The position numbers are program-made. A stretch of 64,000 nucleotides of DNA from a plasmid. The first letter of the stretch is position 1. Each line of letters starts with the position of its first letter. This document shows, one piece after another, positions 30,001 through 36,000 of the stretch. Location: the NCBI RefSeq assembly GCF_053078305.1, contig NZ_CP166875.1; one strand, written 5' to 3'.

Positions 30001-33000
30001 GGCTTAAGGGCTGTCAGGACTCGCTTTTGGCTGCCATCAACAAACCGGAAGAGATGCCGGATTATCTCTTCCGTCAACTCGGTTTTAATCAGACCTGGCA
30101 TGAGTGGAAGCGGGACGAACAGCACAGGCAACAACAACGCCGGCCCGGACACTACCGGGGCATGAGTATGTAATGTCAGGGACAGCTATACGCCATAAAA
30201 AAATGAAATAGATGGCCTCTCTATAAAGAGGCCATGATATTTACTAACCCTGTTCGTTAATACATTCTATAAAGTTTTTATGTAGGCTATCTATATTTTC
30301 TCGGGTATGAATAGCTGATATTGCACAACGTAGAATTGCCTTTCCCTCTTCCACTGTAGGATACATAGCAACGGTTGTAGCAAAACCACGATCATGCATT
30401 TTTTTGCATATCGTTATAGCTTTTTCTTCATTGCCAATTAACAATCCACGTATTGGCATTGTAGTCCCTTTGTTTATGACTTCGGTTTCATTAAATTTGT
30501 CATCAAAGTATTTTATAACTTGTTGTAAGTCATTTTGACGCAAGGATACTGTGCCATCGAGGTGTAAATCTGCTGCTGCGATACATGCAGCAATTCCTGG
30601 TAATGATGGTGGACCACCAAAAGCATAGGTAGTTCCATACGTTTTTATAAAGTTTATGGTGTCAGGATAATTGCATGCAATAAATCCACCATGAGAGCCA
30701 AACGCTTTAGATAATGAACCAGCGATAATAATTCTGTCATCAAGTTTGTTATCCAGACAAGACATTACATATCCGGAGCCATTTTTCCCATATATTGACA
30801 TGCCATGAGCATCATCAATGTAAGCATACCCATCAAATCTGTTAGCCATTCTAACAATAAATTCGACAGGAGCCACCCCACCCATCGAACCGACACTATC
30901 AGATATAGATATTGGTACCATATTATTTATTGAAGCATATTTAAACGCTTCTTCTATATCATTTTTATGTTGAAAGTCAACCCTGATTGTTTCACCGAAC
31001 TGTTGTAATAGTCCTCTATTTATTTGCAATGTTGCATGCGCTGTTTTCTCTAAAATAAAATATGGTTTTTTATTAAACTTGTAATTAGGTAGTGTTCCTG
31101 ATGCAAGAAGTGGGAGTACAGCTAAATGGCATGGAGTAACCGCATTAAATGTTAATGTGTGCGCCCCATTCATTATTTTATTTAATCTCTTTTCCAATTG
31201 CTCGAATAAATCTACTTTTACGCGCGTTCTGGCGACCGAAAGTTGGACTCCAAATCTTTCAATTGCATTAGCGATTGCATGTTTTAGATTTTCATGTGTT
31301 TCCAGTCCAAGATAAGAGCATGACACAAACTCAATCATCTCCCTCCCATCATTAACAGTGATTACCTTACCATTTCTTCTGGTGATCACTAGTTCATTTA
31401 TATGTTCGTTAAATACTCTTGTTTGGTATTTGATTGAACGTTCTATCTTTTTCTTTTGCCAATTCATTTTTTATTATTCCCTATAATAATAGTTACGAAC
31501 ATTGACAATAATGCAAGAATAAGACAACTAATACTTAAAGTGGTTCCCAAAAAAACTCCATTATCGCTTATTTTTACTGAAAGGAAACTGATTGTCCCTG
31601 CGCTTACTGTTTGAGTAAAGCCTGTAATTGATGCTGCTAAACCAGTTCGTGAACCGTTTATCTGCAATGAGATGAAATTAGCTATTGGATAGTATGCGCC
31701 AAGAGTTAAATTGAAAATCATTGCTCCAATAACACATATTATAAAAGCATCATTTAATATAAGAAAAGGTGTAACTGATATTGCATTTAGGGGAAATAAG
31801 ACCCATGGGTTTGATATTTTTTCGATTTTTGACAATTGGTTTCCAATGATGAAAAACAAAACTGACAGGGAAAAAACAACAGAGTAGTGAAATGTATTTA
31901 ATCCATAATCACTCATAAATAGTGCAGGTGATATTGATATGTAGCAAAATAGTGAGCTTAGCATTAGTGAAACGAGTATTGTCCCGCAGATGAAATCTTT
32001 AGTCACAAATTTTACATTATCTTGATGTGTTTTTTTCTCCTGTTTATTAGTCTCTTTAGGTGACAGGAGTATGGTTAGAATGCTAAATGCACCCATTACA
32101 ATAAATATTACATTCCAGTTATAATAATCAAGTATTAATGCTCCGGCCAGAGGTGCTATTAATGGTATTATCGCACTTGTTGATGATATGTCAGAAAGTG
32201 CTCTTTTTAGCTTTAGTGGTGGAAAAGACTCTTTAGCAATGGCTTTTGATATTACAGGTCCGGCACCTGCACCTATTGCCTGTAGAATTCTACCCAAAAG
32301 AAGCATATTTAAATCATTGGCCATAAAACATACAATACTGCCAATAAGAAATATAATTAAGCATATAGTCATTACGCGTACTTTTCCGAAATAATCACCT
32401 ATGGTTCCTGATATCAGTTGACTAAATGCAAATACAATAAGAAATCCACTAATACTTAGTTGAATTAATGAGTAGTCAGCATGAAATGCTTTCTGTAGTT
32501 CTGGTAACGCAGGCACAATCATGTCAGTTGATAATGCCGATAATGATGCAGCAAGAACAAGGTAAATATATAGTTTTGTCATAATTAATCCCTGATAAAA
32601 ATATTCTTATTTATCATATTTAAAATGCTTACGCCATCGGTATGTTTTATATTTTGAGATAGCACTACGATAGTGTTTGAGTAGAAACTAATGGGTACTC
32701 CCAGATGCATATTCAGGTTGATGGAAGGGGGTAAAAATCCCCGTGCTGAACCTTCCATCCGGAGGGAGGAAACTTATCATTTTAACCTGTTCGTCCGTCG
32801 GAATAGTCGAAATCGATCGCGCATCGCTTTTGTGAATAGTTATGCAAGTACCTGAAAACGATTCTGACGCATTTTTTCGGTTTAGCCTGGGGTTTCCTTG
32901 TCTTTTTGCGTTTTTGCGTCAGAACGCGTATGAGAGCGTTTCAGCGGTACGTACAATTAAGGGATTATGGTAAATCCCCTTACTGTCTGCCCTCGTATCC

Positions 33001-36000
33001 ATCGAGATAAACCGCAGAAATGGTGTCTGCCATTAGTTTCATTTTTTTCGGCGACGGCATATCGCTGTTTGTGTATTTTCTGCCAGCAAAGGTTGTTGTG
33101 CTCCGGAGTGAGTGAAAAAATTTTTCTGAGTGGAATTCTTTTATACGTTGCTGTGCCGTTTCTGCTGATACTCCGGCTGCTTTGTCTTTCACCCCCATAT
33201 CCCGGAACTGCTGAAAGAACGGGAGCATCATACGTATGGTGTCTGCTTTCTGGGTGTAGAAGTTAGGATCAAATCCATCATCTGAAGCATAAACATAATG
33301 CCGGGTATGTCGTTCCAGGCTGGTCTTTGGTGTGCATCCTGTAAGAACGATTGTTGCTGTTATCAGAGGTATCAGAAGCAGCCTGGCAACGGCAGATCTC
33401 ATAAACATCTCCTTGCGTTTTTAATCTTGATACTCAGGGAGTTATATTTCCGAAGAGTATCTCTTATCATACGTCGGTTTACCCCAATGTGATTTGATGG
33501 TCAATGAGTCAGGAATAATCCCGTGAAAAAATGTGTGCCAGTCCTGCTTTTTAGTGTTCTTTCTGCTTCGGTTGCCAGTCATGCGGACAGCAATGTTTTT
33601 CAACAAAAGGCCGAGAAGACAAAAAATGGCATTGTTGCGGATGTTAATGCCAGACAGAAAATGTTCAGTAACAGACTGAAGATACAACTTCAGATCGATG
33701 AGTTGAGGGCATCTCTGGCTGGCACCAGAGATGCCCAAAAAAGAGAGGATTTGCGTAAAAAACTGGAGTCTCTGGAGCGGCAAAAGAAATCCTTACGCTG
33801 ATGGGGGCGTATTTTCCCCGGTTTCTTCCATAACCTTTTTACCGTTCAGATATTTACGGGCGAGGCGAATGCGTCTTGCCTGGTATACCGCCGAGTAAGC
33901 CTGGGTGGGATTCACACCGTTACTGATTTCACTGACCACATGGCGCTGATCAGCCAGTGTCAGCGTGTAAACCTGTTTCTGGATGAGGTCACGGGCTTTG
34001 TCATGCTCATATCCGGCAGCAACAAGGGTGTCGAGAAGTCGTTTGTCTGTTTTGTTCAGTTTATGGCGGGGTGATTTGCTCACATCGTTCTCCGTTTTTC
34101 ATGATCCAACAGTTTTATATCTCATCCTGATTTGCTCCGGTGTTCTGTTTCGACGTTCTCAATGCCTGCCTCCCCATAGTGTGATCCTTATTGCAAAAAT
34201 GAAAATCCATGCTCTTGACATGGACAATGGTGAGTAGTAGGTTTTTCTGTACATAAAACCAGTGGTTATATGTACAGTGTGTTGTTTTTAATTTATTGTT
34301 TTAATTATCAAAGAGGAATTTATGGCTAAAGAACTAAGTGGATATGGCCCAACTGCTGGTGAGTCTATGGGGGGAACAGGGGCGAATCTGAATCAGCAAG
34401 GTGGAAATAATAATAGTAATAGTGGGGTTCACTGGGGTGGTGGTTCAGGCTCTGGTAATGGAGGTGGTGAACATGGAAGTCAGACGGGGTGGGGATGGAG
34501 TAAAACCAATAATCCGGATGTGCCGCCTTATGTTGATGATAATGGGCAGGTGCGCATTACCATTACAAATGGTCTGGTAAAAACGCCTGTATATGGAGTT
34601 CCTGAGGCTGGCGGAAATAGTGATGTTCAGGGGGGCTATATTCCTGAAAATCCTAATGATGAAGTTGCTCGTAAGTGGGATAAAAACAACTTACCGCGAG
34701 AGATTGATGTGAGTATCGATGGTTTTAAATATCGTGTAACGCTTAATGATAATGGTAGAGCTATCGGTATTCTTCGAACAGGTGTCCGTCCTTACGTAGG
34801 GAGTGAAAAAGCTAAGGCGGGTATTATGGAAAAAATCAATCATAAAACACCTGAGGAGATATATGAGGCGTTAGGTTTTAATAAAGATGAATCTCAGCGG
34901 CAGGAAAAAGCAAAACAACAGGCTGAAGATGCGTGGGATCGTTTGCCTCCTAATGTGAGAAAATTTGATGTTGATGTTGAACAGTTCCACTATTTAGTGG
35001 TGCTTGATGATTATGGTAATGTTTTATCTGTAACTAGAACAGCTGTTCGTCCTTATGTAGGGAGTGAAAAAGCTAAGGCTGGTATTATGGATAAAGTCGA
35101 CCATAAGACCCCGGAAGAGATATACGAGGCATTAGGATTTAATAATGAAGAGCCTCAACGACAGAATCAAGCTAAAAAAGCTGCTTATGATGTATTTTAT
35201 TCTTTCAGTATGAACCGTGACCGGATTCAGAGTGATGTGCTAAATAAAGCAGCTGAACTTATATCTGATATGGGTAACAAGATCGGTGATTATCTTGGTG
35301 AATCTTATAAGTCGTTAGCAAGAGAAATTGCTGATGATATCAAAAATTTCCAGGGGAAAACCATCCGTAGCTACGATGATGCAATGGAGTCATTAAATAA
35401 AATTTTGTCTAATCCTAGTTTTAAAGTTAACAGAGCAGACCGTGATGCACTGGTGAACGCCTGGCGAAGTCGTGATGCTCAGGATATAGCAAATAAACTG
35501 GGGAATATCAGTAAGGCTTTCAAAGCTGCCGATGTAATTATGAAGATTGAGAAGGTCAAGGAGAAAAGCATCGAGGGATATGAAACTGGAAACTGGGGGC
35601 CGCTGATGTTGGAGGTTGAGTCTTGGGTTCTCAGTGGTATGGCCGCAAGCGTTGCCATGACATTGCTTAGTGCTATAATTGGATCATTCACACTACCGGC
35701 GTTAGCATTAACTGCAATAAATATTGCAGGTATTATGGGAATTAGTTACCTTGCATCATATATTGATGCAAGTGTGGCTGAAAAAATAAATAATAAATTG
35801 GTTCATTTTACTCATTGATAGAAAAAGAGAGGTGATCATATCACTTCTCTTTAAACGACCTATAGGAACCAATACAAAACCAAAAATACAAATATGAGAA
35901 TATAAAAATAATGGAATGTAAGCTAATGTAAAAAAACGATAGGAGGATTATATTTACAGACATCAGTTTTAGCATTTTTGCAGAACTGGTTAGCTCCGTA

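Follow-up and report, generated by a model that had tools for sequence, protein, structure and literature searches.

The closest described relatives of the locus analysed here are small colicin plasmids. In ColE1 (NC_001371) the order is the multimer-resolution site cer, exc2 and exc1 (both on the minus strand) and then the colicin E1 promoter; in plasmids of the colicin 5/10/K type (pACN001-E, NC_023328; NZ_CP077651; NZ_CP116172), which are autonomous 5-9 kb replicons, a block of three genes fills the segment from cer to the colicin gene. We have studied such a block, exc2-orfB-orfC (32980-34083), in a 64,000-nt stretch of plasmid DNA (NCBI RefSeq assembly GCF_053078305.1, contig NZ_CP166875.1); this whole stretch is called the window below, and positions are counted within it unless another record is named. 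The window is 100% identical to the E. coli plasmid CP027674.1 and 99.8% identical to the IncFIA/FIC conjugative plasmid NZ_CP045714. With a probability of roughly 0.8, the block derives from a small ColE1-family colicin plasmid of the K/5/10/S4 lineage, in which it formed the accessory segment next to cer, and now lies within a large IncF-type plasmid, where it moved together with the colicin S4 operon.

The term 'exclusion' in this gene neighbourhood is a historical label that stems from the original ColE1 annotation. In 1995, Yamada et al. reportedly attributed ColE1 exclusion to mbeD. A more recent study describes a mild ColE1 exclusion phenotype that is attributable to mbeD and has no identified target (2024, PMC11493245).

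The block in small colicin plasmids

From position 32810 or 32936 up to 34331, the window is colinear with and 96-98% identical to plasmids of 6.8-8.9 kb with rop and an operon of the colicin 5/10/K type. In these colinear small plasmids the three genes are flanked by the cer site (or mbeD) on one side and by the colicin gene on the other; mbe genes are annotated in two of the four, and plasmids L001 and L008 have no annotated mob genes. The sequence-only reading had suggested that the three open reading frames (ORFs) might be remnants of a colicin plasmid backbone, and the colinearity from cer to the colicin start codon supports this. The possibility that they might be missing from related colicin regions was not borne out: they are present in the colicin 5/10/K-type plasmids named above (91-98% nucleotide identity over the block) and in another small plasmid, the colicin of which has a ColA-type N-terminal domain. 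Altogether, the block was found in at least 80 plasmid records at 80% or more of its length, and the orfB-orfC cassette in 94 of 5,426 complete E. coli genomes, always plasmid-borne. We therefore regard it as an ordinary, already catalogued backbone segment and not as a new system.

Unlike the autonomous colicin 5/10/K-type plasmids, the window has its segment embedded in an IncF plasmid, and it differs from them further: its colicin is S4, accompanied by the matching immunity gene; there is an orphan immunity gene for colicin K (cki); and the lysis gene has a nonsense codon. In the source plasmid the order would have been cer, exc2, orfB and orfC, followed by the SOS promoter and the colicin gene. 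In the IncF plasmid the three genes are most likely passengers, retained because they are located between cer and the colicin operon. The features of the segment are as follows.

32790-32975, plus strand: cer-type multimer-resolution site cer1, core and accessory arm
32834-32847: ArgR-box-like sequence TGAATAGTTATGCA in the accessory arm of cer1
32946-32975: XerC/XerD core GGTACGTACAATTAAGGGATTATGGTAAAT, abutting the exc2 stop codon
32980-33402, minus strand: ORF A (exc2), 423 nt, 140 aa, Exc2-family lipoprotein with a predicted signal peptide ending in LTGC
33403-33522: divergent exc2/orfB intergenic region, with a promoter-like site for exc2 inside
33523-33801, plus strand: ORF B (orfB), 92 aa, GTG start
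33793-34083, minus strand: ORF C (orfC), 96 aa, GTG start
34084-34321: orfC upstream region and divergent colicin SOS promoter
34215-34220, 34238-34243 and 34247-34277: -35 element TTGACA, -10-like element TAGGTT and LexA-box palindrome (inverted repeat I1) of the SOS promoter
34322-35818, plus strand: colicin S4 gene, matching PDB entry 3FEW (colicin S4) with E = 1.1e-295
35841-36374: colicin S4 immunity gene, annotated as Cui-like in a near-identical plasmid

Our ORF listing recovers all three ORFs that had been described from the sequence alone, and the block does lie directly before the colicin SOS promoter, as had been noted. The open frame of ORF A reaches an upstream ATG at 33408 (32980-33408, 142 aa). 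Since the motif AAGGAG abuts this first ATG and stands 6 nt upstream of the second, and since the 423-nt form is the one given by RefSeq for a nearly identical plasmid, the true start is likely the second ATG at 33402, giving 140 aa. A consensus scan of the minus strand places a promoter-like site for exc2 (-35 ATCACA, -10 TATGAT) at 33493-33466. Of the intergenic region that exc2 shares with orfB, the exc2-proximal half is kept in ColE1, and the whole is kept wherever orfB is present. At the other end of the block, orfB and orfC are convergent and their 3' ends overlap by 9 nt; the description of ORF C as a basic 96-aa protein that converges on and overlaps ORF B is thus accurate (isoelectric point, pI, 9.9).

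On its sequence, 32790-32975 has the make-up of a cer site: a XerC arm, an 8-nt central region, a XerD arm and about 180 bp of accessory sequence with an ArgR box. The core of cer1 differs from that of ColE1 cer by one base in 30. Its accessory arm aligns with those of ColE1 cer, of the cer site of L001 and of a second cer-type site in the window (see below), including the TGAATAGTTATGCA box, and shows only about 75% similarity to its counterpart in the closest small plasmid. Several small plasmids, ColE1 among them, share homology with the window only from 32936 onwards, i.e. at the core. Such breaks at the XerCD core are the trace to be expected of Xer-mediated exchange, and we infer that replicons swap the cer-to-colicin module at cer. 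At the opposite end, the promoter block from about 34180 on is kept in plasmids bearing colicin K, ColJs-like, pesticin and ColE1 determinants.

Two side observations concern the colicin operon itself. The orphan cki gene (36426-36716, minus strand) adjoins the colicin S4 immunity gene and is left over from a colicin K-type ancestor of the module. The colicin lysis gene (36746-36878, plus strand) has a nonsense mutation at codon 26 (MKIIIFLIKILFLSGCQANYIRDVQ followed by a stop), while the lysis protein of small plasmid L003 is 43 aa long; the colicin S4 operon is probably without a functional lysis protein here.

Comparison with ColE1 exc1-exc2

ColE1 and the window have in common the cer core, an exc2 gene opposite to the colicin strand, a further small gene transcribed towards cer and the SOS promoter. 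When the two sequences are aligned, they are homologous over the cer core, exc2, the exc2 upstream region and the SOS promoter, and non-homologous over about 33480-34170. BLASTP gives no alignment of Exc1 with ORF C or with an antisense ORF of the block, and no homology with ORF B (E = 1.6); hhalign likewise detects no similarity to Exc1 (probability 0.1%). Given the alignment gap and the lack of similarity to Exc1, orfB-orfC is an unrelated cassette that occupies the exc1 slot. ColE1 Exc1 itself (145 aa) weakly matches phrog_66, an excisionase/regulator family (E = 1e-4), and PADLOC mad1 (E = 5e-5), and its sequence does not suggest a role in exclusion at the envelope. By eye, the product of ColE1 exc1 (4443-4880 of ColE1, minus strand) has an N-terminal helix-turn-helix followed by a coiled-coil-like C-terminus.

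OrfC, a predicted backbone protein of ColE1-type replicons

Homologues of orfC occur in two further settings. In the Y. pestis plasmid pPCP1, the homologue WP_002221218 is encoded between pst and pla and is divergent from the SOS-type promoter of pst (pesticin); in a 5.2 kb ColJs-like plasmid, the homologue is divergent upstream of the ColJs-like cluster. Both copies are about 75-76% identical to OrfC over residues 2-83. The two plasmids differ from the window in that they lack exc2 and orfB, the C-terminal tail of their OrfC is different, and the 3' end of orfC runs straight into a cer-type core. The second setting is on ColE1-type replicons where OrfC-like genes of 45-58% identity are translationally coupled to rop, overlapping its stop codon as ATGA: P0077, which is found on 23 contigs, and P0081, the second rop-coupled case. 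These proteins share the four-helix core and the RRIRLARK motif with OrfC; on their contigs, the OrfC-like gene is not divergent from the cargo genes, and the cargo is unrelated. We located rop-orfC operons with ATGA coupling at 4822-5246 of L014 and 218-744 of L012, and also in L015 and L016; the cargo near such operons includes genes that resemble those of type VI secretion system effectors. Since a ColE1-type replicon is the sole common denominator of these contexts, the sequence comparisons identify orfC as a backbone gene of such replicons rather than a colicin-specific one.

The AlphaFold model of OrfC is confident, with a predicted local distance difference test score (pLDDT) of 82.5. 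It has four helices (residues 11-22, 27-38, 43-54 and 59-82) and a disordered, variable tail, which is the part encoded where orfC overlaps orfB. Helix 4 is arginine-rich and contains the conserved motif YQARRIRLARKYL. OrfC has no Pfam or NCBIfam family; it matches PHROG phrog_36305, of unknown function, over residues 2-84 (E = 9.3e-39). As tblastn finds no match to OrfC in 50,697 phage records, the phage link of this PHROG family is doubtful. The OrfC family is small: an exhaustive HMMER profile search of 1.8 billion representatives yields 19 proteins, none of which links to a known family. Sequence and profile searches of the PDB with OrfC returned nothing significant, and hhalign against Rop (PF01815) indicates no homology (probability 0.07%). 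Two candidate resemblances were set aside: one to a lysozyme repeat in the OrfC/Exc2 search (5i8l, E = 0.12) is weak, and one to the N-terminal helix-turn-helix of terminase small subunits, made out by eye, was supported by no tool and is not claimed. In the literature searched, no paper names the RefSeq accessions of the block proteins, and YPPCP1.06 is mentioned only as a primer location.

OrfC is predicted to be cytoplasmic. Because of its charge and its conserved arginine-rich helix, we infer that it binds nucleic acid and serves plasmid maintenance or regulation. It would likely act on the cer region, on the divergent promoter region or on the RNAs that control replication. Our tentative proposal, which we hold with low confidence, is that OrfC could be an unrecognised accessory factor of ColE1 replicons, acting in copy number, in multimer resolution or in checkpoint signalling, or in SOS bacteriocin expression, with OrfB as a lineage-specific periplasmic partner of Exc2. 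Alternatively, given its divergent position in the colicin, pesticin and ColJs-like settings, OrfC could be a dedicated transcriptional regulator of the adjacent SOS bacteriocin promoter that adjusts the expression of colicin, pesticin or ColJs by binding between the two genes. We consider this doubtful: the distant homologues form a coupled pair with rop and do not diverge from the cargo genes, ColE1 has the same promoter core without orfC, and no operator-like repeat was found.

Exc2 and OrfB, two predicted envelope proteins

The lipoprotein that the sequence-only reading had picked out by its LTGC motif proves to be a member of the Exc2 family. ORF A matches NCBIfam NF033828, 'Exc2 family lipoprotein', over profile positions 6-131 of 131 (E = 3.7e-53; 179.6 bits against a cut-off of 35), and is 67% identical to ColE1 Exc2. 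Its signal sequence MRSAVARLLLIPLITATIVLTG precedes the Cys of an L-T-G-C lipobox, with Thr at position +2, and this Cys is invariant in 23 of 23 family members compared. Exc2 is thus predicted to be exported and lipidated, and the Thr at +2 predicts an anchor in the outer membrane on its periplasmic side. The family has many members on plasmids of Enterobacterales, those of Klebsiella, Cronobacter and further genera included. No significant match to Exc2 came from sequence and profile searches of the PDB.

OrfB had been described as a signal-peptide protein with a charged coiled-coil tail. Its N-terminus, MKKCVPVLLFSVLSASVASHA (residues 1-21) followed by DS, does look like a Sec signal peptide by eye, and the remaining 71 aa are basic and charged (pI 10.3). 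The coiled coil was not confirmed: in a simple heptad test, the hydrophobic fraction at the a/d positions of the tail (0.40-0.54) was reached by 626-1847 of 2000 shuffles, so that we speak of a charged and probably helical tail. OrfB is predicted to be a Sec-exported periplasmic protein and may possibly partner Exc2, with which it shares the divergent 120-bp control region. It has no match in Pfam, NCBIfam, PHROG or PADLOC. Relatives of OrfB are confined to Enterobacteriaceae plasmids (identity at least 53%), and the copy in the small plasmid that carries the colicin with a ColA-type N-terminal domain has a 9-residue insertion. The gene is found only in the colicin-plasmid lineage with exc2 and orfC, and as fragments near resolvase genes (IncK2/Z, IncF). 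These fragments comprise orfB, its upstream region and a 3' piece of orfC, without exc2, adjoining the resolvase genes (orfB at 4157-4435 of L011, 4001-4276 of L009 and 4001-4276 of L007); orfB is intact in L011 and interrupted by a stop in L007 and L009. They are probably decaying remnants of the same colicin module. Within the orfB coding sequence of the window lies a perfect 12-bp inverted repeat, GGGCATCTCTGG and CCAGAGATGCCC with a 6-nt spacer (33707-33736), which may be specific to this copy because most OrfB homologues have Glu where the window has Ser64.

An envelope location of both proteins agrees with the older idea of exclusion or mobilisation, which the sequence-only reading had named as examples of what the block might do. 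On this account the block would be an entry-exclusion or mobilisation module in which Exc2, perhaps with periplasmic OrfB, cuts the uptake of related plasmids at the recipient envelope. The family name and NCBIfam label of Exc2 fit, as does the position of the block just downstream of mbeD in mob-positive plasmids. We give this account little weight and think it unlikely, because mild ColE1 exclusion has been assigned to mbeD (PMC11493245) and because the block is kept in L001 and L008, which have no annotated mob genes, and in the IncF plasmid. Moreover, Pfam and NCBIfam scans and pairwise comparisons with Exc1 and MbeD link neither ORF B nor ORF C to a mobilisation or exclusion family; for OrfB and MbeD (MbeD/MobD, PF04899), there is neither an alignment nor a Pfam match.

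It is highly improbable that Exc2 and OrfB instead protect the producer envelope from the lysis protein or from re-entering colicin, or mask a receptor against phage or colicin. Their predicted location would suit such a role, and the block is tightly linked to colicin operons even on IncF plasmids. However, we found no homology to receptor blockers of the Cor/Llp/TraT type or to defence systems (PADLOC has no defence-family match for Exc2, ORF B or ORF C), Exc2 is also widespread on the plasmids of Klebsiella, Cronobacter and other genera, and orfB is absent from ColE1, pPCP1 and the ColJs-like plasmids.

Coding status of the three ORFs

We compared the window with diverged plasmid copies codon by codon, recording the substitutions at each codon position and the ratio of nonsynonymous to synonymous substitution rates (dN/dS). 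For orfB, the copies with 94% DNA identity show 3/2/11 substitutions at codon positions 1/2/3 and a dN/dS of 0.18, and a copy with 90% identity a dN/dS of 0.29; these are noisy estimates, as the copies differ by only 16-27 substitutions. For orfC, the pPCP1 and ColJs-like copies (79% DNA identity) show 11/12/28 and 10/14/29 substitutions with a dN/dS of 0.28, and closer copies 1/0/6 and 0/1/6 with a dN/dS of 0.05-0.12. The alternative frames of orfB and orfC contain stops or have a dN/dS of about 1 or higher, save for the mirror frame, in which a low dN/dS is an expected artefact because third positions are shared with the true frame. A Shine-Dalgarno motif stands at proper spacing before each of the three genes (AGGA 9 nt upstream of the start in orfB, GGAG 6 nt upstream in orfC). 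Exc2, OrfB and OrfC therefore appear to be encoded by genuine protein-coding genes under purifying selection. Two antisense ORFs (32967-33266, plus strand; 33442-33783, minus strand) were rejected as genes, because they have no family match (Pfam, NCBIfam, PHROGs, PADLOC) and a poor dN/dS.

That orfB, orfC or both are chance open frames in a conserved non-coding backbone (promoter, terminator, cer flank) is scarcely credible: the lack of a Pfam or NCBIfam family for either, their annotation merely as hypothetical proteins, the narrowness of both families and the stops in some orfB copies would fit, but the third-position bias and the dN/dS of 0.05-0.29 are seen in the annotated frames, the alternative frames are broken by stops, orfC stays intact at 45-75% identity across three genomic contexts, including the ATGA coupling to rop, and the AlphaFold2 (AF2) model of OrfC is confident.

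Besides the noise in the orfB estimates, a number of points weigh against the picture of a conserved three-gene segment with two envelope proteins and a nucleic-acid-binding OrfC. Some large-plasmid copies of orfB (L007, L009) contain a stop codon, and the gene is therefore dispensable, or can decay, outside its native context. The lipobox of ORF A and the signal peptide of ORF B were assigned by eye, and the Exc2 fold is uninformative. Structural comparison gave OrfC no significant neighbour, and a canonical helix-turn-helix was not made out in its fold; the case for nucleic-acid binding is made up of charge and conservation alone.

Other ColE1 remnants and elements in the window

A second complete cer-type site lies at 20129-20340 on the minus strand, inverted with respect to cer1; in its core it matches ColE1 cer without a difference. 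The site adjoins, without a break, some 2.4 kb of small-plasmid backbone: the window from 22615 down to 20129 corresponds to 395-2965 of L001 at 92-94% identity. A remnant of a ColE1-type origin of replication occupies 17225-17622, with Rfam RNAI (RF00106, 59.8 bits) at 17466-17571, and is 73-84% identical to the origin regions of ColE1, pPCP1 and small Col plasmids. Position 17622, where this remnant breaks off, and position 36902, where the colicin segment ends, are neighbours in small plasmids, and this points to a rearrangement or inversion. A 563-aa ORF (18360-20051, minus strand), with an N-terminus that by eye resembles DUF2235-type hydrolases, is placed between the origin remnant and the second cer core, where a ColE1-like plasmid has its 'cargo slot'.

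Right after the end of the colicin segment there is a short ORF (37154-37324, minus strand) that by eye resembles the C-terminus of a Tn3-family transposase, and further on a phd/doc toxin-antitoxin pair (37480-38138, plus strand; annotated in L002). An Rfam scan identifies the PK-repZ pseudoknot (RF01087, 166.7 bits) at 41944-42094 on the minus strand, a replication-control element of the IncI/K/B type; over 32000-35000, the Rfam scan found no RNA family at E-values up to 1.

Discussion

This analysis mostly settles the annotation of the block, which in small colicin plasmids is part of the standard accessory segment cer-exc2-orfB-orfC. The label 'entry exclusion protein 2' persists in annotation even though the gene has no demonstrated exclusion role. 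More broadly, the window is a documented case of a colicin module passing from ColE1-type plasmids to conjugative F-type plasmids, the homology being broken at the XerCD core. What interest is left attaches to orfC, a narrow and conserved gene of the ColE1 backbone that is unstudied and is also carried by pPCP1 of Y. pestis.

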